From positions 544,001 to 608,000 of the forward strand of contig CP046106.1 in assembly GCA_013343275.1 (NCBI GenBank): DNA of 64,000 nucleotides, written 5' to 3'. The translations under genes were made by a program, and so were the position numbers. The notes under the pieces were generated by a model, which saw only the letters and a list, made by a program, of their open reading frames with translations, did not search any database and had not been told where the DNA came from. Every line of letters starts with the position of its first letter. Position 1 is the first letter of the stretch. Shown here piece after piece: positions 10,061-51,645 of this stretch. The stretch comes from Candidatus Nanohaloarchaea archaeon (GTDB lineage: Archaea; Nanohalarchaeota; Nanosalinia; Nanosalinales; Nanosalinaceae).

Positions 10061-10142
10061 AGGGTTGTTGTCACGGAGCAGTTATATCAATCTTTCGGCT
10101 CTGCCGCTCCGATTTAAAACTCTACAGAAAAAGTACACTGTT

Positions 10143-11051
10143 ATGGACATATGGACGGTCGGCACCTCTAGCGCAGTACCTACGCGCGAAAGAGGGCTCG
10201 CAGCAAACCTGATCAACTACAAAGGAGAAAGAATACTATTCGACTGCGGAGAAGGCACACAGAGAACCCTGATGTCAGAAAAACTAGGCCTCATGAAAAT
10301 CAACAAAATATTCATATCACACTGGCATGCCGACCACTTCTCCGGCCTCCTCGGACTAATACAGACAATGGAGATGGAAGGCCGGGAAAAACCGCTATAC
10401 ATCTACGGCCCACCAAGAACAGAGGAGTTCACCGACAGAATCCTCGACACAGGCTACTTCAACAGAAGCTATGACATATTCGTTGAAGACCTGGTAGAAG
10501 GCGACAACATCGTTGGTGAAGGCTACGAAGTAAGGCCTTTCGAGGTAGAGCATGGAATCAACGCGTTCGGATTTGTATTCAAGGAAGAAGACCAGAGAAA
10601 AGTAAACAAGAACAAGATGCAGGAACTAGGCCTCGAACAGTCACCTAAAATCGGCAAGCTGAAGGAGGGAGAGACAGTAGAGCTGGAAGGCAAAGAGGTT
10701 CAGCCTGAAGAGATAATTGAAGACATGCCTGGAAGAAAAGTTGTCTACTCCGGCGACACCGCTAAATGCCAGAACATGATAGACCATGCAGAAAACGCAG
10801 ATCTCCTGATACACGAGGCAACCTGCCTGCACGAGATTATCGACAAGAGAGAGGGACATACCTCTGCAAAACAGGCCGCAGAAATAGCAGACGAAGCAGA
10901 CGTTGAGAAACTGGTACTGACACATCTATCACGGAGATATAGAAACAACTCCGAAGAGCTACGGGAAGAGGCCCAGGAAGTATTCAGCAATACTGAAGTT
11001 GCTGAAGACGGAGAAAAATTCGAGGTAAAACCTCATAGGCCTGAAAAATAA
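10143..11051 (+). CDS. rnz: Ribonuclease Z
   Basis: GTSSAVPT-x-x-R, DCGEGTQ, HWHADH, SGDT, HEAT, THLSRRY; ATG at 10143. Confidence 0.95.
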   Translation: MDIWTVGTSSAVPTRERGLAANLINYKGERILFDCGEGTQRTLMSEKLGLMKINKIFISHWHADHFSGLLGLIQTMEMEGREKPLYIYGPPRTEEFTDRILDTGYFNRSYDIFVEDLVEGDNIVGEGYEVRPFEVEHGINAFGFVFKEEDQRKVNKNKMQELGLEQSPKIGKLKEGETVELEGKEVQPEEIIEDMPGRKVVYSGDTAKCQNMIDHAENADLLIHEATCLHEIIDKREGHTSAKQAAEIADEADVEKLVLTHLSRRYRNNSEELREEAQEVFSNTEVAEDGEKFEVKPHRPEK

Positions 11052-11717
11052 CTATAAATCGAATCCTGCGCGTCGAAGAACATCTAATGAGTCCTGAGGC
11101 TGGACTCCAAGTTCTTTAACCCTGTCTCTTAACCTGGCCTCATCGATATCAAACATTCCTGCATCAGACATTTTCTCAAGGTCGTAGAAAGTACCAGGCT
11201 TTTTCTCCAGGCGGAAAACCCCTTCAGAATCCCGCTCCAGCAAGTTAGGATCAGCCACCTTCGTATAGACAGCATCCTCCGGCTGTGGGATTGAAACCTC
11301 AAAACCTTCAAAATCAATTCTGCGGGCCTCATCCACGACCTCTCTGTAACCTGGTATAGGCCCATCCTCTACAATATGAACATCAGGTCGAACCCCGTTA
11401 TAGTACTCATTGTCATGCAGGGCCTGTAAAGCAGAGTTCCGGTCGCGTACAAGGTCATCTATATCATCAGTAGACCGGTGCTCGAACTCTCTCCGAACAC
11501 TGCTCATCCCTCCTACAGCATAGGCCTCTAACTGAGTTCCTATACCGCCGATAACAGCATAGTCAACATCTTCATCCTCCAGATATCGGGAACTATCTCT
11601 AAGGCCTTCCTGCATACACTCATCCAGAATGTTGCCTTTACAGCTGGAATGGGAGGCCCTGTTCTTTATCTCGTCAAGCCTCTCAAGCTCATCATCAATA
11701 CTGAAATCTGATGCCAC
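11052..11717 (-). CDS. Putative nucleotidyltransferase (AbiEii/DUF6036-like motifs)
   Basis: YAVIGG...R-S-T-D-DID motif and later K...D-L-x-x-M. Confidence 0.5.
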   Translation of the reverse strand: MASDFSIDDELERLDEIKNRASHSSCKGNILDECMQEGLRDSSRYLEDEDVDYAVIGGIGTQLEAYAVGGMSSVRREFEHRSTDDIDDLVRDRNSALQALHDNEYYNGVRPDVHIVEDGPIPGYREVVDEARRIDFEGFEVSIPQPEDAVYTKVADPNLLERDSEGVFRLEKKPGTFYDLEKMSDAGMFDIDEARLRDRVKELGVQPQDSLDVLRRAGFDL

Positions 11718-11742
11718 AGATCAATAACAAAATCCAGAATTT

Positions 11743-12276
11743 TTATTCATTTCCATCTACCTCGCGAGTAAGCTTCTGATCCTCACTCGGCTCAACCTCG
11801 ATCCCGGCACCTTCAAAATCTTCTTTTATCTGGTCCTCCTGAATCCGGTCCATGAAAACTGCGAGGGCCGCAATCTCGCTGTGAGGCTGATTACCTACAG
11901 AAATATTGTAGTCGACACGAGTGTAAACCCATCTCGGTACCTTCTCAGCACCTACAACGACAAGAAGATCGCCGGCCTCATCGAACTCTTCTTTAAGGCC
12001 TTCAATTTTCTCGCTAATCTTCTCGCCGTACATAGTCAGATGCACGGAAAGGCCTTCAAAACCACGTATAACTTTTTTCCAGTCCTCAGTGTATTCAATT
12101 TCTACATCTCCGCCCCAGCGATCGATTATATCTCTCTGGGACTCCAGAATACTAGTATCTTTCTCACCAGAATAGACTATTCTGTCAGCTCCCCACTGCC
12201 GGGCAGTAAGGCCTACATGAGTGGAAATTCTGTCATCTCTTCCTCTGCGGTGGCCTAGCCTGAGAACTGTTATCAT
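11743..12276 (-). CDS. tRNA (cytidine-56-2'-O)-methyltransferase (aTrm56)
   Basis: LRLGHR-x-x-RD-x-R-x-STHV, HLTMYG, VGAEKVP, NQPHSE. Confidence 0.95.
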   Translation of the reverse strand: MITVLRLGHRRGRDDRISTHVGLTARQWGADRIVYSGEKDTSILESQRDIIDRWGGDVEIEYTEDWKKVIRGFEGLSVHLTMYGEKISEKIEGLKEEFDEAGDLLVVVGAEKVPRWVYTRVDYNISVGNQPHSEIAALAVFMDRIQEDQIKEDFEGAGIEVEPSEDQKLTREVDGNE

Positions 12277-12296
12277 AACCTTGAATTGCTGGGATA

Positions 12297-12306
12297 GATT
12301 ATTAAG
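12297..12306 (+). promoter_or_regulatory. Putative TATA box for the leaderless thrS leader transcript
   Basis: ATTAAG begins 31 nt before the uORF ATG at 12332; identical spacing in the glyS leader. Confidence 0.5.
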
Positions 12307-12331
12307 AGCTGAGCCCAGAAACTTTTCTACA

Positions 12332-12446
12332 ATGAAGGGTGGACGTTTTACCTTCGGCCCACATGTTTCGCAACCAAGCCAGCTTTAACTTTAGCTGTCA
12401 AAACCTTTTCTATAAAATTAGAAACTTTGCAGGAGATTCTCAATGA
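12332..12446 (+). promoter_or_regulatory. thrS leader: uORF MKGGRF-T-FGPHVSQPSQL* (12332-12388) with putative +1 frameshift cassette; +1 frame ends in TGA overlapping the thrS ATG
   Basis: ATG AAG GGT GGA CGT TTT ACC; +1 frame 12348-12446 stop-free until ...TCT CAA TGA (ATGA overlap). Confidence 0.75.
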
Positions 12447-14368
12447 GTATTGAAGTAGAACTACCAGACGGCTCGACACTAGAAGTAGACGAAAACGCAA
12501 CAGTAGAAGACGTGGCCTACGAGATAGGTACAGGCCTCGGAGACGACACAGTCGCAGGAAAGATCAACGGCGAACTAGTCGCAAAAGAGGAAAAAGTCAG
12601 CGACGGCGACGAAATAGAGATCGTAACTCCGCAGAGCGACGAATACATCGATGTGCTCAGACACTCCGCCGCACACGTATTCGCACAGGCCCTGAAAAGA
12701 ATCTACGGCGACGAAGTAAAACTTACAATCGGGCCGTGGACAGATGAAGGATTCTACTACGATATCAAAGGAGTTGATCTGGATCAGGAGGACTTCGAGG
12801 AAATAGAGGAAGAGATGCAAAATATAGTAGATGAGGATCTCGATATCGAACGTGAAATGCTGCCCCGAGAAGAAGCAGAGGAGTTCTTCGAAGACAATAG
12901 ATTCAAGCAGGAGATTCTTGAAGAGGAGGCATCTGAAGGAGAGAAGGTCTCATTCTACAAACAGGGAGAGTTCAAGGATTTGTGTAAAGGCCCTCACGTA
13001 GAATCTACTGGCGAAGTCGAGGCCTTCAAGCTGCTGGAGATCGCAGGCGCCTACTGGCGTGGAAACGAGGAAAACGAGATGCTGACACGTGTCTACGGAA
13101 CTGCCTTCCCTTCAGAGGAAGAACTTGAGGATTTCCTGGAGAAGAAGAAAGAGGCCGAGAAACGTGATCACCGGAGGATCGGCGAGGAAATGGACTTGTT
13201 CTCCGTACCTGAGCACGCTCCTGGCTGCCCTCACTATCACCGTGCCGGCATGAAGATCAGGAGAGAGCTGGAAGAATATATAAGAACGAAGAACAAGGAG
13301 CTGGGCTACGAGGAAGTCTGGACTCCAGAGCTGAACAAGGCAGATCTCTGGAAGAAGACAGGCCACTACGAGGCCTTCAAAGAGGACGGCGAAATGTTTG
13401 CATGGGAGCAGGACGACACGGAGTATGGCCTGAAGCCTATGAACTGTGCGAACCACTCCCACATCTTCGACTCCGGAAAGAGAAGTTACAAGGAGCTTCC
13501 TATCAAGCTTTCCGAGTTCGGGACAGTTTACAGGAACGAACAGTCCGGAGAGCTTTCAGGCCTTCTACGCGTTCGCGGCTTCACACAGGACGACGGCCAC
13601 GCATATATCCGGAAGGATCAGATTGAGGAGGAGATCAGGAAGCATCTCGAGATAATTATAGAGATGTACGACGAGTTCGGCTTCGACACACACTTTATAC
13701 TGGAGACAAAGCCGGAAAAGGCTCAGGGACCGGATGAGCTATGGGATGAGGCCGAAAGCTCTCTTAAGAACGCGTTGAACCAGACCGTAGACGACTTCGA
13801 GATCAAACCTGAGGAAGGTGCTTTCTACGGGCCGAAGATCGGTGTTGAAGTAGAGGACGCGATCGGACGTGAATGGCAGCTTGGAACCGTTCAGCTCGAC
13901 TTCGTGATCCCACGTAACTACGGTCTGAAGTACGTAGGAGAGGACAACGAGGAGCACTACCCAGTAATGATCCACAGGGCAATCCTTGGATCTATCGAAC
14001 GGTTCATGGGGGTTATGATCGAGCACTTCGCGGGCGACTTCCCGACATGGCTGGCGCCTGAACAGGTCAGAATCCTGCCAGTAACCGACGACAATATGGA
14101 GTACGCGGAGAAGATCAAGGAAGAACTCTCGGATTTCAGGGTAGAGATCGAGGACCGCAGCTGGACGGTAGGCAAGAAGATTCAGGCCGCACACGACGAC
14201 AACGTACCTTACATGCTGATCCTGGGCGACGACGAGGAAGAAGCAGGAGAAATATCGGTTAGAGACCGTGAGGAAAACGAGGATCGCGGGTTCTCAGTTG
14301 AAGAATTCAGAGAAGCCCTCAGAGAAGAAGTTGAGGAGAAAAAACTGGAGCCCGACTTCCTCCAGTAA
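12443..14368 (+). CDS. thrS: Threonine--tRNA ligase (bacterial-type architecture: TGS, editing, catalytic, anticodon-binding)
   Basis: HSAAH, DLCKGPHV, RDHR, KPMNC, RVRGFTQDD, GAFYGPK, IHRAILGS. Confidence 0.97.
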   Translation: MSIEVELPDGSTLEVDENATVEDVAYEIGTGLGDDTVAGKINGELVAKEEKVSDGDEIEIVTPQSDEYIDVLRHSAAHVFAQALKRIYGDEVKLTIGPWTDEGFYYDIKGVDLDQEDFEEIEEEMQNIVDEDLDIEREMLPREEAEEFFEDNRFKQEILEEEASEGEKVSFYKQGEFKDLCKGPHVESTGEVEAFKLLEIAGAYWRGNEENEMLTRVYGTAFPSEEELEDFLEKKKEAEKRDHRRIGEEMDLFSVPEHAPGCPHYHRAGMKIRRELEEYIRTKNKELGYEEVWTPELNKADLWKKTGHYEAFKEDGEMFAWEQDDTEYGLKPMNCANHSHIFDSGKRSYKELPIKLSEFGTVYRNEQSGELSGLLRVRGFTQDDGHAYIRKDQIEEEIRKHLEIIIEMYDEFGFDTHFILETKPEKAQGPDELWDEAESSLKNALNQTVDDFEIKPEEGAFYGPKIGVEVEDAIGREWQLGTVQLDFVIPRNYGLKYVGEDNEEHYPVMIHRAILGSIERFMGVMIEHFAGDFPTWLAPEQVRILPVTDDNMEYAEKIKEELSDFRVEIEDRSWTVGKKIQAAHDDNVPYMLILGDDEEEAGEISVRDREENEDRGFSVEEFREALREEVEEKKLEPDFLQ

Positions 14369-34134: not shown

Positions 34135-35289
34135 CTATCTCTGGAGTTCTAGATCGATGTTTCTGTCCCACATTTCCTGGGCCAGTTCGCCGTCGTACAT
34201 CATCTGCTGCACCAGCTCATCTGCATTCTCCTTTCTCTCCTGGTGCTCCTGAAGGAACTCGTTCAACTCTTCTACCAGTATTTCCTTGATCTCGCCAGTC
34301 ATCATCTCGCCGGAGGAGTACTTCTCAGCGATCTCCCGGATTCTCTCATCGTCCTCCATCAAAAGGTTTCTCAACCACTGGAAAGAGGTATCAACTGCCA
34401 GATCAGCGCCTTCCTCACGGTGTTCTTCCAGAGTATCGCCTCCACCTGAGTAAGCATGCTTCTTGACCTTCTCCTCGACCTCTTCAGGGCTGTCATCCAG
34501 CATGATCGCGGTCTTCGGCTTCGAGGAACTCATCTTCCCCTCAGGCCCTGTCAACGCCGGGATAAACTTGGAGTGGATCGCCGCTGTCTTCTTGTGGCCG
34601 AACTTCTCGGCAATATCCCTCTGGATCCTCCAGTACGGATCCTGATCGATCGCAGCCGGGATAACGCACCGCTTGTCCTCGAAGAATGTCGGAATATTCT
34701 GTATAGCAGGCCAGAAATTCATTCCAATATTGGTCGAGCCTTCAAAGCCGAAAACGCTCTGGGCCTGTGAATTATTGATTTTTTCGGCAATCTTCACGAT
34801 TCCATCATACATGTGACCCATGTATTCTCTGTTTCGGAAGATGAATGTCTTGTCAGGATCAAAGCCAACAGCTGCGATCTCCCTGATATTATCCTCTGCG
34901 TACTTATCGATTTCCTCATCTGTTATATCGCGGTCCCAGTACTTCTCGTCGTCAGTAACCTGTATATACACGTTGACATCGAACTTCTCCTGAATCCACT
35001 TCGTGAAGTAGAAACTGATAATATGGCCTATATGCATCTTGCCGCTAGGCCCGATACCGGTATACAGGAAGAAGCCGTCTTCTTCCTCGTACTCATCAAG
35101 CGCCTTGTCAAGGCCTCTGTGGGAGTAGATGAAGTCTCTCTTCATGTAGAGGTTCTCATCTCCAGCCAGATCGAAGAATCTCTCCTTCAACTCCTCGTCG
35201 ATCTCCTCGGTTCCGAATTTATCTATTAGTCTATCGTAGTCTACCTGACCCTCCACATCGAAAGGCGTCACATCAAAATCCTCTGCCAT
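34135..35289 (-). CDS. trpS: Tryptophan--tRNA ligase (archaeal type)
   Basis: VTPF, DY-x-x-LI-x-x-FG, YTG-x-GPS-x-x-MHIGH, DQDPY, KMSSS; AGGAGG SD. Confidence 0.96.
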   Translation of the reverse strand: MAEDFDVTPFDVEGQVDYDRLIDKFGTEEIDEELKERFFDLAGDENLYMKRDFIYSHRGLDKALDEYEEEDGFFLYTGIGPSGKMHIGHIISFYFTKWIQEKFDVNVYIQVTDDEKYWDRDITDEEIDKYAEDNIREIAAVGFDPDKTFIFRNREYMGHMYDGIVKIAEKINNSQAQSVFGFEGSTNIGMNFWPAIQNIPTFFEDKRCVIPAAIDQDPYWRIQRDIAEKFGHKKTAAIHSKFIPALTGPEGKMSSSKPKTAIMLDDSPEEVEEKVKKHAYSGGGDTLEEHREEGADLAVDTSFQWLRNLLMEDDERIREIAEKYSSGEMMTGEIKEILVEELNEFLQEHQERKENADELVQQMMYDGELAQEMWDRNIDLELQR

Positions 35290-35305: not shown

Positions 35306-36358
35306 CTAGTTAAGTTCTGATCGAAGAAAGCTTTTCAAGATTTCACAGTATGCTTCCAGGCTTTCAACCTCCACATACTCGTCTTCAGCGTGAAGATTGT
35401 AGCCTTCCGGGCCGAAACAGACCGCAGGAACACCTTTCTCGGTGAAGAACCTCATGTCGCTCGCAAAGTTCTCCCTCCTGAAATCAACCGTTTCTCCAGA
35501 AACTTCCTCAGCTGAAGTTTTCAGGGCCTGAGCTCCAGAATTTTCCTCCGAAGTCTCCAGCATCGGGGCCTCCGCCAGGACTTCGTACTCCAGGCCTCCC
35601 ATTTCTTCTAGATCTCTCAGAACTTCCTCCTTCGGGTACTGGTTTGAGTACCGGATATCTACCTGTAGAGAGGCCTTGTCAGGTATCTGGTTGACAGGTC
35701 CTTCAGCGGAGATATTGCCCAGGTTGATCGTGGTTCCAAACTCGGCCTCATGGTTAAATCCTGATCTGAACTCCATGTACTTTTTGAGGAGTTTTTCGGC
35801 CGCGTTCTCGCCTCTATCAGGTTTGGACGCGTGAGCGTTCTCCCCTGAGGCCTTTAACTCGAGCTGGAGAACCCCTTTCTGCTCTGTGACTATTGATGGG
35901 AAATGACCTGAGTCATCGGGCTCCGCTGAAATTACCAGTTCCGGTTCAATCCCTGTTTCTTCAGTTACGTGGCCTGTGCCGTTAAATCCTCCTCTTTCCT
36001 CGTCAGATGTAATTAGGATTCCTAGATTCTCGGCCTCAACTTTCTGGGCAGCTTCGATGATACAGGCAATCCCTGACTTCATGTCGGCTGTTCCTCGGCC
36101 GTAAATTCGGCCGTTACGCCTTTCTGGTCGGAAGAGCGAGTCTTTTGCATCTACCACATCGATATGGCCGTGGAGGAGAATTTGCGGTTCACCCCTCGTA
36201 GCCAGTAGAGATTTTTCTCCTTCCTCCTCGAATCTCTGTATATCAAAGTCTTCTGGCAGTTCTTTCTCAACCAGTTGAAGGCCTTTCTCTATTTCTCCTA
36301 GGTTTCCTTCTACCGTCCTGAGTTTTACCAGTTCTTCAGTCATTTCCTCTATATTCAT
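35306..36358 (-). CDS. M20 family metallo-hydrolase (ArgE/DapE-like)
   Basis: HGHIDVV, GRGTADMK, DEE-x-GG, HAS-x-P, H-x-x-DEYV; ATGA overlap with the upstream GNAT gene. Confidence 0.88.
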   Translation of the reverse strand: MNIEEMTEELVKLRTVEGNLGEIEKGLQLVEKELPEDFDIQRFEEEGEKSLLATRGEPQILLHGHIDVVDAKDSLFRPERRNGRIYGRGTADMKSGIACIIEAAQKVEAENLGILITSDEERGGFNGTGHVTEETGIEPELVISAEPDDSGHFPSIVTEQKGVLQLELKASGENAHASKPDRGENAAEKLLKKYMEFRSGFNHEAEFGTTINLGNISAEGPVNQIPDKASLQVDIRYSNQYPKEEVLRDLEEMGGLEYEVLAEAPMLETSEENSGAQALKTSAEEVSGETVDFRRENFASDMRFFTEKGVPAVCFGPEGYNLHAEDEYVEVESLEAYCEILKSFLRSELN

Positions 36359-37129
36359 GCCATTCTCTCGCCTCCTTCAGTGAATTCGTAGTCGGACTTC
36401 CTGGCTGCTCTTCCCAGGCTGTGTGCGGCCTCCGATTCGCTGACCTCTCCTGCTACAACCAGGGCATCGCCATCCTCGAAGGACATGTTGAGGCCTTCTT
36501 CTCCATACATAAAGTCCTGGAAATCATCGTTCTCCGGTATGCTGGAGTACATTCCTCCATCGTAGATGTCTGCGTAGGCCTCTCTCATTACCGGGCCTTC
36601 CATTTCTTTGTCGACGTCGATCGCTTCTCCCAGATCCTGTACTTCTTCCAGCATCTCCTCTTCTTTTCCTGGCTGTGGGTATACTTCGAAGCAGTTGTCT
36701 GCGCAGGCGTACATGTTCGGGTTCTGCGTTCTATAGCCGAAAAGCTCGTCTCCCTCCGCCTCCTCCACCACTCCTCTGCTGAGTAGTGTACTGCCGACGC
36801 ATCTTCCCTGCAGGCTATCGTCAACCGCAAGACCTACCTCGTAGACAGTGTCGTCCATCCGGGATAGGCCTGAGAATGCTACGTACTCTCCGTCCTCGTC
36901 TTTTGCTGTGACGAGTGTAGGTACTCTGAGGTGGTCTCTTGCGTCCTGATCGGTTGGGACACCTTCCTTGGAGAAAGCGTTCTGCGCGACGTCAACAAGC
37001 TGTTGTTCGGCCTCGGAGTTGGCCTCTAGAAATTCTTCTGGATTTTGATGTACCTCTATCTCAAGGCTTCCAAAAACGTCCACCCTGTTCTCGGGCTTCC
37101 GATGTCGAATAGTTTTCAGTCTGTTCCAT
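36355..37129 (-). CDS. GNAT-fold acyltransferase-like protein, proposed to be made by +1 frameshift joining 37129-37073 to the ORF called from GTG 37083
   Basis: LAV-x-x-x-LQGR-x-VGS acetyl-CoA motif; the upstream ATG frame MEQTENYSTSEAREQGGRF-W-KP* carries the TTT-TGG cassette and is acidic, whereas the +1-frame sequence upstream of the GTG is basic and has no ATG. Confidence 0.65.
37061..37129 (-). promoter_or_regulatory. Trp-sensing uORF B: MEQTENYSTSEAREQGGRF-W-KP*
   Basis: CAG GGT GGA CGT TTT TGG AAG CCT TGA; a +1 slip UUU->UUU enters the GNAT frame. Confidence 0.75.
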
Positions 37130-37332
37130 AAGTCAAATCACGTAAGCAAAGATTGCCAGAAAAGCTTTAAATAGCTTACAGAGCTTCTACCTGGTTTTTA
37201 GAGATAGCTGAAGCTGTAGAGATAAGTTTAACCTGGAGTAATACTGGCAAAGCTAAAATAAAACGTATGTGGAGTTAAGGCCATGAGAAGTTCTTGATTG
37301 AGGAGATCTGTAGATAGCTGTGGCTCAGAGAA

Positions 37333-37377
37333 TTATTTCTGTGCAGGAGGCCAAAAGCATCCACCTTTCTGAGCCAT
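37333..37377 (-). promoter_or_regulatory. Trp-sensing uORF A: MAQKGGCF-W-PPAQK*
   Basis: ATG GCT CAG AAA GGT GGA TGC TTT TGG; TTTTAA about 29 nt upstream; flanked by the 9-bp inverted repeat TGGCTCAGA/TCTGAGCCA. Confidence 0.7.
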
Positions 37378-39444: not shown

Positions 39445-39559
39445 ATGAAAGGTGGATGTTTTGGACTGTCCTCAGAGGCAGTCACACGGCAAAGTATTCA
39501 ATAATCTAAAACCTTCTAGTTCTGACTATAAAAATTTCCACGAGAGTGTTTCTGCATGA
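39445..39559 (+). promoter_or_regulatory. glyS leader: uORF MKGGCF-G-LSSEAVTRQSIQ* (39445-39504) with putative +1 frameshift cassette; +1 frame ends in TGA overlapping the glyS ATG
   Basis: ATG AAA GGT GGA TGT TTT GGA; +1 frame 39461-39559 stop-free until ...TCT GCA TGA. Confidence 0.75.
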
Positions 39560-49101: not shown

Positions 49102-51645
49102 ATGGCCGCAGAAACAGAAACCGTGCAGAAAGAAGATGAAGGCAGGAAGGCCCAGACAAAGATCAACAAGGTCACCTGTAAAGGATTCAAGAGCTTCCAG
49201 AGAAAAACCTCAATACCGTTCTATAAAGGCCTTACAGCTGTTGTAGGGGAGAACGGTAACGGCAAGTCGAATATTCTGGATGCGATCAGTTTTGTTTTCG
49301 GCAAGAGGTCTTCTCAGCTCCGTGCAGAAAAGCTTGAGCAGCTGATTTTCAACGGTGGAGATAACCGTAAGGCCGCAGATCATGCTCATGTAACAGTTTA
49401 CCTGGACAATACCTCCGGAGTTTTCGATGAGTTTATCGAGGATGAAGAAGAGGGAAGCCCTGACGAAGTTACTGTAGGTCGCAAAATTACCCGTGCAGGT
49501 TCCTCCATGTACAAGTTCCAGGGCACTAACTGCAAGAGAAGCAAGATTGACGAATTATCTCGGAAGGCTGGTATCGATCCGGATGGATATCACTTTGTCA
49601 GGCAGGGCCAGATCACGGAGATCGTTGAGCAGAGCCCGACTGAGAGAAGGAAGATTATCGACGAGCTTTCCGGCGTGGCAGAGTTCGATGAGAAAAAGGA
49701 TGAGGCGATGGAGGAGCTTGAAGAGGTCGAGCAGAAGCTTCAGGAGCAGGAGATACTGCTTGATGAGAAAAAAGAATACTTGGAAAGTCTTGAAGATCAG
49801 AAAGATGCGGCGATAAAGTACAGGGAGCTCGATGAGCGGAAGGACAAGCTGCAGGCCTCTATCCTGGAGGTCCGTAAGAGAGCACTGTCTAACCAGCTGG
49901 CGAATATTAATACCGATACAGATGAGAAGAAGGAGAGGATTGAAGAACTGGAGGAAGAGCTGGAGGAGATAGATGAGGAGATCGATGAGAAACAGGCCCG
50001 TATAGAGGAGATCGAGGAGAGTCAAGGCGGTAATAATGATATTCAGCACCTTCAGAACAGGATTGAGAAGAAGGAGGGTAAGATCGAGAACAAGCGTGAT
50101 AAGGTCAAGGACCTGGAAGAGACGATCAAGGAGTTGGAGCGTATGCAGAACAACCGCAGCACAGGCTCCAAGGCAGTTGACGCAGTACTGAACATGGATA
50201 ACGATTCTGTCAACGGCATGTTCCAGGACCTTATCTCATACGAAGACCGATTCTCTACAGCCATCCAGACTGCGGCAGGAGGCCACATGAACGACGTCGT
50301 TGTGGAAGATAAGCAGACCTCTGTTGACATGATTAACTACCTGAAACGTGAGAACATCGGCCGGGCCCGTTTCCTGCCTCTGGACAAGATCAAGGACCGA
50401 TCAAAGTCCGCAAAAAGCCAGATGGCGAAGAAGCGGAAAGGCGTAATCGGCTATGCATCCGAGCTTGTGGACAACGACTCCAAGTTCGACAAAGCTGTCA
50501 GCAACGTTTTCTCCGATACACTTATTGCCGAAGATCTGGACTCCGTGAAAGATATCGATGGTGTCCGCGTGGTTACTCTTGACGGCGACGTCATGAGCAG
50601 AGGAGGAGCAATGACAGGTGGTAAGAAGAAAAGAAGTCGTTCCAGTTCCAGCAGCTCTTCTTCCGGCCGACTTGATCCAAAGAAGAAAAAGAAGGAGAAG
50701 GAAGAACTTGAGGACGAGATAGAGGACCTGCAGAAAGATATTGCCGAACTGAAAAACATGAAGGAACGCAAAGAAGAGGAAGAAGAGACTGATGAAGAGC
50801 TTCGTGAGGAGAAAAAGCAGCTGCGCGAAGATCTTAACGAGTTGAGGGATGAAAGGCAGGAGAAGTACTCTGAGAAGCAGAAGCTGAAGAGCAAGATCGA
50901 CAGCGTAGGCCAGAAGAAAGCCAATCTGAAAGCCGAACTGGAGAATGTGAAGGAGGACCTTGAGGACTTTGAATACGATGAAGATGAGCTCTCTCTGGAG
51001 GCCTCTCCTGAGGACCTGAAGAAGAAAAAGAAGAAGATTGTACGGAAGCAGAACAATATGGGGCCTGTGAACATGCGAGCCATCGATGAGTACAAGGAGA
51101 AGAAGGAGGAGTTTGAGGAGTTCAAGGAGAAGGTATCTGAGATCAGGCAGGAGAAGCTTGAGATCGAGGACTGGATCGAGGAGATAGAGTCAGAGAAACG
51201 CGAGCGATTTATGGATACCCTGGAAGACGTGCAGGACAGCTTCGAGGAGATATTCCAGAAACTGTTTGAAGGTGGCGAAGGCAAACTGGTTCTGGAGGAC
51301 GACGATATCGAGAAAGGCCTCCAGTTCAAGGTCGCACCTCCGGGAAAGGATCCGCATATCATTTCATCGCTTTCCGGAGGAGAAAAGACCATGACCGCGA
51401 TCTCCTTCATCTTTGCGATCCTGGAGTACGAGGAAAGTCCTTTCTACATCATGGACGAGATCGACGCCGCGCTTGACAAGGACAACTCCCGCAAGCTTTC
51501 TGAATTACTGAAGGATTACGCAGAGGACAACCAGTTCATAGTCATCAGCCACAACGACATCACTGTACGGCACGCAGAGAGGGCCTACGGAGTTTCGATG
51601 CGGGACGGCGTTACAAAGATGCGGAGTATCGAACTGGATGCCTAG
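49102..51645 (+). CDS. smc: Chromosome segregation protein SMC (unusually short, 847 aa)
   Basis: GFKSF, GENGNGKSN Walker A, QG Q-loop, hinge (GRARFLPLDKI, VTLDGD-x-x-x-x-GGAMTGG), PVNMRAI, LSGGEK, DEIDAALD. Confidence 0.93.
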   Translation: MAAETETVQKEDEGRKAQTKINKVTCKGFKSFQRKTSIPFYKGLTAVVGENGNGKSNILDAISFVFGKRSSQLRAEKLEQLIFNGGDNRKAADHAHVTVYLDNTSGVFDEFIEDEEEGSPDEVTVGRKITRAGSSMYKFQGTNCKRSKIDELSRKAGIDPDGYHFVRQGQITEIVEQSPTERRKIIDELSGVAEFDEKKDEAMEELEEVEQKLQEQEILLDEKKEYLESLEDQKDAAIKYRELDERKDKLQASILEVRKRALSNQLANINTDTDEKKERIEELEEELEEIDEEIDEKQARIEEIEESQGGNNDIQHLQNRIEKKEGKIENKRDKVKDLEETIKELERMQNNRSTGSKAVDAVLNMDNDSVNGMFQDLISYEDRFSTAIQTAAGGHMNDVVVEDKQTSVDMINYLKRENIGRARFLPLDKIKDRSKSAKSQMAKKRKGVIGYASELVDNDSKFDKAVSNVFSDTLIAEDLDSVKDIDGVRVVTLDGDVMSRGGAMTGGKKKRSRSSSSSSSSGRLDPKKKKKEKEELEDEIEDLQKDIAELKNMKERKEEEEETDEELREEKKQLREDLNELRDERQEKYSEKQKLKSKIDSVGQKKANLKAELENVKEDLEDFEYDEDELSLEASPEDLKKKKKKIVRKQNNMGPVNMRAIDEYKEKKEEFEEFKEKVSEIRQEKLEIEDWIEEIESEKRERFMDTLEDVQDSFEEIFQKLFEGGEGKLVLEDDDIEKGLQFKVAPPGKDPHIISSLSGGEKTMTAISFIFAILEYEESPFYIMDEIDAALDKDNSRKLSELLKDYAEDNQFIVISHNDITVRHAERAYGVSMRDGVTKMRSIELDA

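Follow-up and report, generated by a model that had tools for sequence, protein, structure and literature searches.

The thrS leader of a nanohaloarchaeon as a probable copy of a codon-programmable cassette for sensing charged tRNA

The thrS gene of Candidatus Nanohaloarchaea archaeon, encoding threonyl-tRNA synthetase, is preceded by a short leader, the organization and relatives of which are described here. The leader lies in a stretch of 64,000 nucleotides (nt) of the assembly GCA_013343275.1 (contig CP046106.1, positions 544,001 to 608,000, forward strand), in the following called the window and counted from its first letter; the genome itself is a single contig of 915,886 bases with a G+C content of about 47%. 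The thrS product (12443-14368, +; 641 aa) displays a class II core as well as anticodon-binding, TGS and SAD domains (Pfam TGS, tRNA_SAD, tRNA-synt_2b and HGTP_anticodon), and a spacer of 166 nt separates the gene from the divergently oriented Trm56 gene (11743-12276, -). Within this spacer, a TATA-like box, ATTATTAAGA (P1; 12298-12307, +), which includes the word ATTAAG (12301-12306), ends 24 nt 5' of the ATG of a short open reading frame (ORF) with leaderless-type spacing. This mini-ORF has 18 codons in frame 0, reads MKGGRFTFGPHVSQPSQL up to its stop codon (12332-12388, +) and is conserved in its first seven codons only. Its start codon is followed by the block AAG GGT GGA (12335-12343, +), in which the word AGGGTGG resembles a Shine-Dalgarno (SD) sequence, and by a proposed shift site (12344-12352, +) with CGT as E-site codon, TTT (12347-12349) as P-site codon and the threonine codon ACC (12350-12352) as A-site codon, which we refer to as the sensor. 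Four frame-0 stop codons are found before thrS (TAA at 12386, TAG at 12392, TAA at 12413 and TAG at 12419; 12386-12421, +), the first of them 54 nt 5' of the thrS ATG, whereas the +1 frame, open from 12336 to 12446 (36 codons stop to stop), comprises 31 sense codons when counted from 12351 and closes with CAA TGA, the TGA overlapping the thrS ATG as ATGA (12443-12446; frame 12351-12446, +). Further downstream lie an AAAACC box (12400-12405), a second TATA-like word, CTATAAAATT (12410-12419; both boxes 12400-12419, +), ending 23 nt 5' of the thrS ATG, and the SD-like word GGAG (12432-12435, +), ending 7 nt 5' of it. An earlier sequence-only reading of the window had described this layout, and its elements were all recovered, namely the start of ATTAAG 31 nt 5' of ATG 12332, the single threonine codon directly after TTT, the frame-0 stops, the +1 frame closing over the thrS start codon and the distance of 111 nt between the two ATGs. 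We propose, with a probability of roughly 0.75, that the thrS leader represents one copy of a charged-tRNA sensor which can be programmed by a single codon and would act via programmed +1 frameshifting.

Four strong, near-identical copies of the cassette were found in the source genome with nhmmer (E 5e-11 to 2.6e-7), and further copies, carrying short N-terminal extensions, were detected by pattern search. They follow the formula (ATG..)AAR-GGT-GGA-YRY-NYY-XXX, in which XXX encodes the amino acid of the downstream enzyme. The identities of the downstream genes listed in the following were confirmed. MKGGRF-T precedes thrS (ThrRS), and MKGGCF-G precedes the GlyRS gene (39445-39559, +; sensor GGA at 39463-39465), where the TGA of the +1 frame again overlaps the start codon (glyRS ATG at 39556). 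MKGGRF-Y belongs to a TyrRS-type enzyme (class I W/Y), MKGGRP-S to SerRS, two tandem copies of ..GGYV-P to a class II enzyme (proS), ..KGGCF-V to a class I I/L/M/V enzyme (valS) and MSSKGGRF-C to CysRS, while ..QGGRF-W (cassette at 37129, -) stands before an operon of GNAT, M20 peptidase and TrpRS-type genes. The HisRS gene is preceded by the variant form MKGDYD-H, whose +1 frame has 52 open codons and closes in an ATGA overlap with hisS. Three further words resembling the cassette were regarded as fortuitous or unclear: MKAGRPR, which follows the AspRS gene (window position 49136), QGGCV-L, which overlaps the start codon of a GATase gene (G000 319111), and GGTGGC...TGG, which lacks an ATG and stands before a SMODS gene (G000 314022).

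Conservation of the cassette was analyzed at the thrS loci of relatives, 40 of which were fetched (ThrRS identity down to 55%) and 28 of which were usable. The cassette was present at 23 of these 28 loci in the form caATGAArGGTGGAyryyyyACn, 84-186 nt upstream of the thrS ATG, and was kept while the upstream neighbour gene, the remainder of the mini-ORF and the spacer changed; the sensor varied synonymously between ACC, ACT and ACA. GlyRS, SerRS and TyrRS loci, which were picked by enzyme rather than by motif and scanned over 450 nt upstream, carried cassettes in 15/28, 16/29 and 8/27 usable cases, respectively. At the Thr, Gly, Ser and Tyr loci together, the sensor was cognate to the downstream enzyme in 62 of 62 cassettes (Gly always GGA, Ser TCC or TCT, Tyr TAC or TAT), and all 62 showed an in-frame ATG 2-6 codons 5' of GGTGG, the tails of the mini-ORFs being variable. 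Two extra GGTGG words (L009 at -114 and L017 at -237) and nine looser GGNGGN words in the scanned upstream regions were not counted as cassettes; the former are followed by a non-cognate codon and the latter by other codons.

The match between sensor and enzyme was furthermore observed in a blind set of 40 pattern matches at previously unused places, of which 38 were fetched and 36, including one serS duplicate locus, were evaluated by their next ORF. Here, the sensor was read first and the next ORF was named afterwards (NCBIfam). The next ORF was the cognate aminoacyl-tRNA synthetase (aaRS) in 32 of the 36 cases (serS 8, glyS 9, thrS 10, tyrS 2, valS 2, cysS 1), and a non-cognate aaRS was downstream in none of the 36. 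Two Ile sensors preceded threonine ammonia-lyase (IlvA), the enzyme of the first step towards isoleucine, and the last two ORFs had no family, one of them (L133) being later read as thrS. Out of 70 genomes of the phylum, 47 contained a strict 18-nt pattern, for which 89 matches were obtained as compared to 1 for the reversed control. When the scan was extended beyond the phylum, two named nanohaloarchaeal assemblies recurred among the matches listed, both with matches on several contigs, the matches in bacterial records were isolated and dispersed at roughly chance level (about 140 estimated over the collection) and, again among the matches listed, Halobacteria were absent.

The reading frames between sensor and enzyme were compared in 93 aaRS leaders, consisting of the 62 enzyme-selected ones and 31 from the blind set, with stop codons counted over the stretch that begins at the sensor and ends 17 nt 5' of the aaRS ATG. 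The +1 frame contained no stop in 2577 codons and was open in 93/93 leaders, as opposed to about 25/93 expected from shuffling. Frame 0, with 237 stops in 2585 codons, was open in none, and the -1 frame, with 125 stops in 2552 codons, in 16 of the leaders. The spacers vary widely, forming 40 clusters at 70% identity with a median pairwise identity of 0.54. The +1 stretches, 21-106 codons long, encode peptides of unconserved sequence, and selection therefore acts on the frame being open. Relative to the A of the aaRS ATG, the +1 stop is positioned at -16 to +11, and in 36/93 leaders it forms an ATGA overlap (stop at +1), while the first frame-0 stop is found 40-297 nt before the aaRS ATG (median 63). 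Thus, the geometry of coupled gene pairs, with a stop at or near the downstream start, is that of the +1 frame and not of frame 0, which ends at least 40 nt away. In Haloferax volcanii, according to the excerpted text of the report concerned, termination-reinitiation needs an overlap or a very short gap, and a distance of about 20 nt nearly abolishes it (PMC10666635). Given this distance limit and the early stops, frame 0 can be regarded as the 'off' path and the +1 frame as the 'on' path. Additionally, an SD-like 4- or 5-mer was present within -20 to -3 of the aaRS ATG in 62/93 leaders.

Moreover, in some copies the +1 frame of the cassette leads into a protein or into a second cassette, arrangements that are difficult to account for unless a frameshift takes place. 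The Trp cassette of the window consists of ORF1, MEQTENYSTSEAREQGGRF-W-KP and a stop (37061-37129, -; ATG at 37129, GGTGGA from 37084, sensor TGG at 37072-37070), preceded by an SD-like GTGAT, and its +1 frame is a GNAT-family ORF of 242 codons (36355-37083, -) with its first ATG at codon 93. This ORF overlaps an M20 peptidase gene (35306-36358, -) via ATGA, and the TrpRS-type gene (34135-35289) is next. Among 9 homologue loci, drawn from several genera, 7 had the GNAT frame as the +1 frame of a Trp cassette, and in all seven a short frame ending in ..GGR(F/V)-W is opened by SD-like GTGAT and an ATG. At these seven loci the homology of the GNAT protein starts at the cassette; six of them have the first ATG of the GNAT frame between codons 93 and 136, and one (L287) has it at codon 7, ahead of the cassette. 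The two homologues that have no cassette possess an ordinary ATG of their own where the others have the junction. The GNAT-family gene seems to be expressible solely through a +1 shift at the Trp codon, and the entire operon of GNAT, M20 peptidase and TrpRS-type genes may thus be under the control of Trp-tRNA. The Trp cassette described above is itself preceded by another one, MAQKGGCF-W (37330-37374, -). A distance of 148 nt separates the end of its +1 frame from the next ATG, and this second cassette matches none of the output types found elsewhere.

Chained cassettes were observed as well. Before proS of one locus (L031; G000 239843-240090), the +1 frame of the first of two tandem Pro cassettes leads into frame 0 of the second, and the +1 frame of the latter closes on proS with ATGA. 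Two successive shifts would hence be needed, which should sharpen the response. At another locus (L155), two His cassettes are chained via their +1 frames and lead into an AbrB/MazE-type ORF, which may encode a histidine-responsive transcription factor produced by recoding. A third His cassette-like word, GGTGAACGTGTTCAT, follows that ORF. Double cassettes were also found for Ile plus Leu (L036; G000 250658-250691, -) and Val plus Leu (L034; G000 672892-672913, -), before genes of 393 and 172 codons, respectively, to which no Pfam family was assigned. At the ends of their shared +1 frames, these amino acids recur in runs (..ISIILLIILIL and ..VELVALLLLVLLL, each before the stop), resembling the branched-chain attenuator peptides of bacteria. 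The two Ile cassettes before IlvA (L140 and L166) likewise have Ile-rich +1 ends (..ISAIGIISIIGMIMG and ..ISIISIIGIIG, each before the stop), located 37-66 nt before the predicted start. Taken over all these forms, a phylum-wide nanohaloarchaeal regulon is likely, in which one switch of about 21 nt would be combined with aaRS coupling, protein fusion, a second cassette or a branched-chain leader peptide as output. The proposal of the sequence-only reading, a +1 frameshift dependent on Thr-tRNA that would couple translation to thrS, is supported by comparative evidence compiled independently of it, namely the sensor-enzyme match, the open +1 frames, the early ends of frame 0, the GNAT fusions and the chained cassettes.

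The branched-chain variants raise the question of leader-peptide attenuation without any frameshift, in which a pause at the cognate codon would alter RNA folding or transcription termination. A short leaderless ORF with a cognate codon and an in-frame ATG in every one of the 62 enzyme-selected cassettes is what such a mechanism would use, hairpins past the stop codon occur in some leaders, and the Ile/Leu/Val codon runs at the ends of the branched-chain +1 ORFs are like those of bacterial attenuators. This explanation, however, leaves the 93 open +1 frames ending at the aaRS ATG and the +1-fused protein frames unaccounted for. It would, moreover, have to work with a single regulatory codon, as the thrS mini-ORF contains one Thr codon and the seventh position is the sole conserved cognate one, and oligo-T is rare in the spacers (T5 or longer in 7/93, T6 or longer in 3/93, at most T4 in the thrS spacer), while structure after the sensor is significant in Gly leaders only. 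We consider attenuation improbable.

The codons around the proposed shift site are under unequal constraint. The E-site codon is always YRY (CGT, TGT, CAT, TAT, CGC, TGC, CAC or TAC, for R, C, H or Y), and the preceding GGT GGA is near-fixed (GGT in 91/93 and GGA in 90/93 leaders), which indicates a constraint on the RNA and not on the peptide. Conservation of TTT-ACN, which had been predicted by the sequence-only reading, held for the second codon, since ACC, ACT or ACA follows the P-site codon at the thrS loci, and was relaxed for the first: the P-site codon is TTT in 82/93 leaders and otherwise CCC, CTT, CCT or GTT. The sole tRNA-Phe found has the anticodon GAA, and UUU is therefore read by G.U wobble. 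Additionally, the 3' end of 16S rRNA (..GGAUCACCUCC) contains, with UCACCU, a possible pairing partner for AGGUGG, which precedes the P-site codon by 4 nt. Two base-pairing schemes within the leader were examined and rejected. An intra-cassette hairpin GGUGG..UUACC shows only changes from G-U to G-C, none of them compensatory, and breaks with ACA sensors, and pairing of a 5' AARGGU with ACCUUU of the AAAACC box is seen in the thrS leader of the window and is missing in L005 and others, and hence is not general.

The invariant block also bears on a tRNA-binding riboswitch of the T-box type, in which the codon would pair with the anticodon of uncharged tRNA and no translation would be involved. 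Its codon-enzyme logic matches that of a T-box specifier, and the UGGA of the block resembles the UGGN of T-boxes. Against it speak the ATG that is always in frame at leaderless promoter spacing, the distance of just 7 nt between codon and UGGA, the invariance of UGGA across amino acids and the conserved +1 frame, for which it offers no explanation. Furthermore, Rfam cmscan of positions 11500-13000 with E up to 10 returned no T-box or aaRS leader, the hits STnc230 (E 1.2) and SNORD65 (E 5.3) being far below their gathering scores. We regard this possibility as extremely unlikely.

With regard to initiation, the position of the mini-ORFs corresponds to the general promoter architecture of the genome. 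Genome-wide, TTTAA peaks with its start 26-35 nt upstream of start codons, and most genes with a non-coding upstream region follow this pattern; a minority of genes has GGTG or AGGT starting 11-15 nt upstream, that is, SD-led spacing. The spacing of -31 for ATTAAG in P1 agrees with this peak, and in the cassettes of the source genome the in-frame ATG lies 21-27 nt after a TTTAA-type box. Since the two spacings coincide, the mini-ORFs look leaderless. Leaderless archaeal transcripts are marked by a TATA box some 25-30 nt 5' of the start codon, and ATTATTAAGA takes this place at ATG 12332; a TATA-like word was found 21-40 nt 5' of the mini-ORF ATG in 75/93 leaders. A further conserved element is AAAACC, which occurs 40-60 nt before the aaRS ATG in 59/93 leaders as compared to 2.8 expected, i.e., about twenty times as often as after shuffling. 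It has no fixed reading frame, adjoins the TATA-like box in Thr and Ser leaders and lies 12-14 nt away from it in Gly and Tyr leaders. In the thrS leader of the window it forms part of cAAAACC-TTTTCTATAAAA (12399-12417), about 30 nt before the thrS ATG. An interpretation of AAAACC as a general B recognition element was dismissed, the genome-wide promoter profile having merely an A-rich patch 3-5 nt before TATA.

On this basis we propose that transcription from P1 would begin at the mini-ORF ATG or immediately 5' of it, giving rise to a leaderless or nearly leaderless mRNA, on which the ribosome would translate M-K-G-G-R-F before the sensor ACC enters the A site. With plentiful Thr-tRNA, decoding would continue in frame 0 and end at least 40 nt before thrS, too distant for reinitiation. 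With scarce Thr-tRNA, the A site would stay empty and the ribosome would shift to the +1 frame, possibly aided by the wobble-read UUU in the P site and by the upstream block AGGUGGA-YRY, which is laid out as in prfB. The shifted ribosome would then terminate on or beside the thrS ATG (ATGA) and reinitiate there or open the start, resulting in more ThrRS. A change of the seventh codon would retarget the same cassette to genes for Gly, Ser, Tyr, Pro, Val, Cys, His or Trp.

Several observations weigh against this mechanism. At the shift site itself, the duplex between the SD-like block and 16S rRNA (-7.3 kcal/mol) is no stronger than that of shuffled 21-mers, and perfect re-pairing of tRNA-Phe after a +1 slip needs a U-initial sensor, as given for Ser, Tyr, Cys and Trp, and fails for Thr, Gly and Val. 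A general stimulatory hairpin downstream was not detected over the 93 leaders (mean z -0.6). Nor is the cassette universal: 5 of the 28 thrS loci (L012, L013, L019, L024 and L025) have none within about 300 nt, and in the source genome none was seen in the 400 nt preceding the genes that encode the Ile, Leu, Met, Lys, Glu, Asp, Ala, Arg and PheA synthetases. Finally, a GTG in the +1 frame within GGTGG is a possible second initiation site, and the promoter-like AAAACC/TATA box that precedes the thrS ATG by about 30 nt is retained immediately in front of thrS in the cassette-less L012, L013 and L019. Gly leaders taken alone (24 leaders) do have a significant hairpin, with a mean z of -2.1. It contains the sensor GGA (e.g., GGACUGUC..GACAGUC), and the stems differ between genomes.

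The GTG leads to an explanation by two competing starts, according to which the 5' ATG opens frame 0 and the GTG in GGTGGA opens the +1 frame, so that no frameshift would be required. All cassette variants observed (GGTGGA, CGTGGT, GGTGAC) have such a GTG in their +1 frame, and the ORF finder places the start of the GNAT ORF at it. The sensor-enzyme rule, which applies to frame 0 only, would then be purposeless, and a ribosome paused at the sensor would cover the GTG, resulting in the wrong regulatory sign. Moreover, at the GNAT loci the SD-like GTGAT stands 4-8 nt before the frame-0 ATG and not before the GTG. Competing starts therefore appear very improbable to us.

The promoter-like box proximal to thrS is probably a second promoter, P2, giving a leaderless thrS mRNA alongside the leader. 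As the box is kept where the cassette is absent, thrS can probably be expressed without the leader. A transcript start downstream of 12352, which the sequence-only reading had named as speaking against its own proposal, would in that case probably coexist with the leader, the latter contributing the regulated share of thrS expression and P2 the remainder. The tandem promoter-like boxes, the retention of P2 where the cassette is missing, the TATA-like words 21-40 nt before 52/93 aaRS ATGs and the conservation of AAAACC at the nucleotide level without a fixed frame would also be compatible with an action at the level of DNA or transcription, in which read-through from P1 interferes with P2 and the ribosome at the sensor sets how far RNA polymerase reaches. 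Neither the fusion genes nor the exact closure of an open +1 frame at the start codon is explained by this model, and oligo-T terminators are rare; we give it very little credence. Each of the four alternative explanations covers part of the data, and none covers both the codon rule of frame 0 and the rule of the +1 frame.

As for the wider surroundings of the locus, tRNA-related genes flank thrS, namely a tRNase Z-like metallo-beta-lactamase gene (10065-11051, +) and the above-mentioned gene for the tRNA 2'-O-methyltransferase Trm56.

To our knowledge, archaea have no T-boxes, and how they match aaRS to demand is largely unexplained. The cassette, if it functions as proposed, would be an archaeal functional counterpart of the T-box. 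As excerpted, a review of archaeal recoding from 2021 lists one proven -1 frameshift in Archaea and +1 events that were merely suggested (PMC8211752), and a review of frameshifting from 2016, likewise as excerpted, treats shifting at hungry codons mainly as an error whose natural use is unclear (PMC5009743). Our literature search, which included termination-reinitiation, returned no description of such an archaeal aaRS leader system. On the reading proposed here, Archaea would have in these leaders their first programmed +1 frameshift of cellular origin. Hungry-codon shifting would for the first time be found in nature as a sensing principle across many amino acids, as a selected mechanism rather than an error. 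Such a system would also explain how internal cistrons are regulated in organisms that initiate mostly on leaderless mRNAs. Recoded genes such as the GNAT and AbrB-type ORFs would necessarily be mis-started by gene callers, and a compact charging sensor that can be retargeted to any chosen tRNA could be used as a reporter.

When compared with known systems, the cassette shares features with several of them. In the attenuators of trp, thr, his, pheST and ilv, several regulatory codons follow one another and alternative terminator hairpins are formed. Like them, the cassette would report the supply of charged tRNA through a short translated leader; in contrast, it has a single codon, T5 or longer in only 7/93 spacers and a conserved second frame. 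The T-box is an untranslated RNA of about 200 nt with a Stem I and an antiterminator that binds tRNA directly. The T-box of Firmicutes and the cassette have in common one specifier codon, the reuse of a module across aaRS genes and the sensing of a lack of charged tRNA, but the codon of the cassette would be read by the ribosome, its conserved part amounts to about 21 nt and it has no Rfam T-box match. In E. coli, ThrRS binds a tRNA-Thr-like fold in its own mRNA, the thrS operator; both leaders belong to the same gene, and the cassette would likewise be autoregulatory. A mimic of the tRNA-Thr anticodon arm was rejected for the cassette, as the only candidate triplet varies as YRY and G35-U36 is not kept; the cassette, moreover, also serves eight other synthetases.

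The closest resemblance in logic and layout is to prfB, encoding bacterial release factor 2, the shift site of which consists of an SD-like block, UAU, a wobble-read CUU and a slow UGA. In both cases the regulated product speeds decoding in the A site, and its scarcity leads, or in the cassette would lead, to a +1 shift and hence to more product. The arrangement is likewise comparable, with an SD-like block, a spacer of about one codon (UAU in prfB, YRY here), a U-ending wobble P-site codon and a slow, or in the cassette putatively slow, A-site codon, the last being cognate in 62/62 cassettes and 32/36 blind loci. The SD-like block of the cassette resembles that of prfB in position, although its pairing energy does not exceed that of shuffled sequences. 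The fusion of ORF1 to a protein frame, as in prfB, is found in the Trp/GNAT copies and in the His/AbrB copy; at thrS, the +1 frame is an unconserved stretch of 31 codons that ends at the thrS ATG. Unlike prfB, where the sensor is a stop codon, the cassette uses sense codons for at least ten amino acids, and it further differs by its tiny leaderless upstream ORF, its archaeal host and termination mostly at the start of the next gene, without sequence homology. The end of the +1 frame has a geometry that suits coupling, as in the ATGA/TGATG reinitiation of Haloferax volcanii and E. coli described in the excerpted reports (PMC10666635, PMC6728339), with the difference that here the upstream frame would be reached only after a frameshift and coupling would hence be conditional. 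Frameshifting as a sensor with regulatory output is also known from antizyme and from zip-2 of C. elegans, where, according to the excerpted report, a frameshift in an upstream ORF activates the gene from existing mRNA under impaired elongation (PMC11831180). Those systems are eukaryotic, sense polyamines or general elongation stress and do not form a programmable family of many copies. Taken all together, the autoregulatory logic of prfB is the known part of the proposed system. By this comparison the system would be new in using sense codons, in being retargeted to many amino acids, in the leaderless nature of its upstream ORF, in having reinitiation as its output and in its archaeal host.

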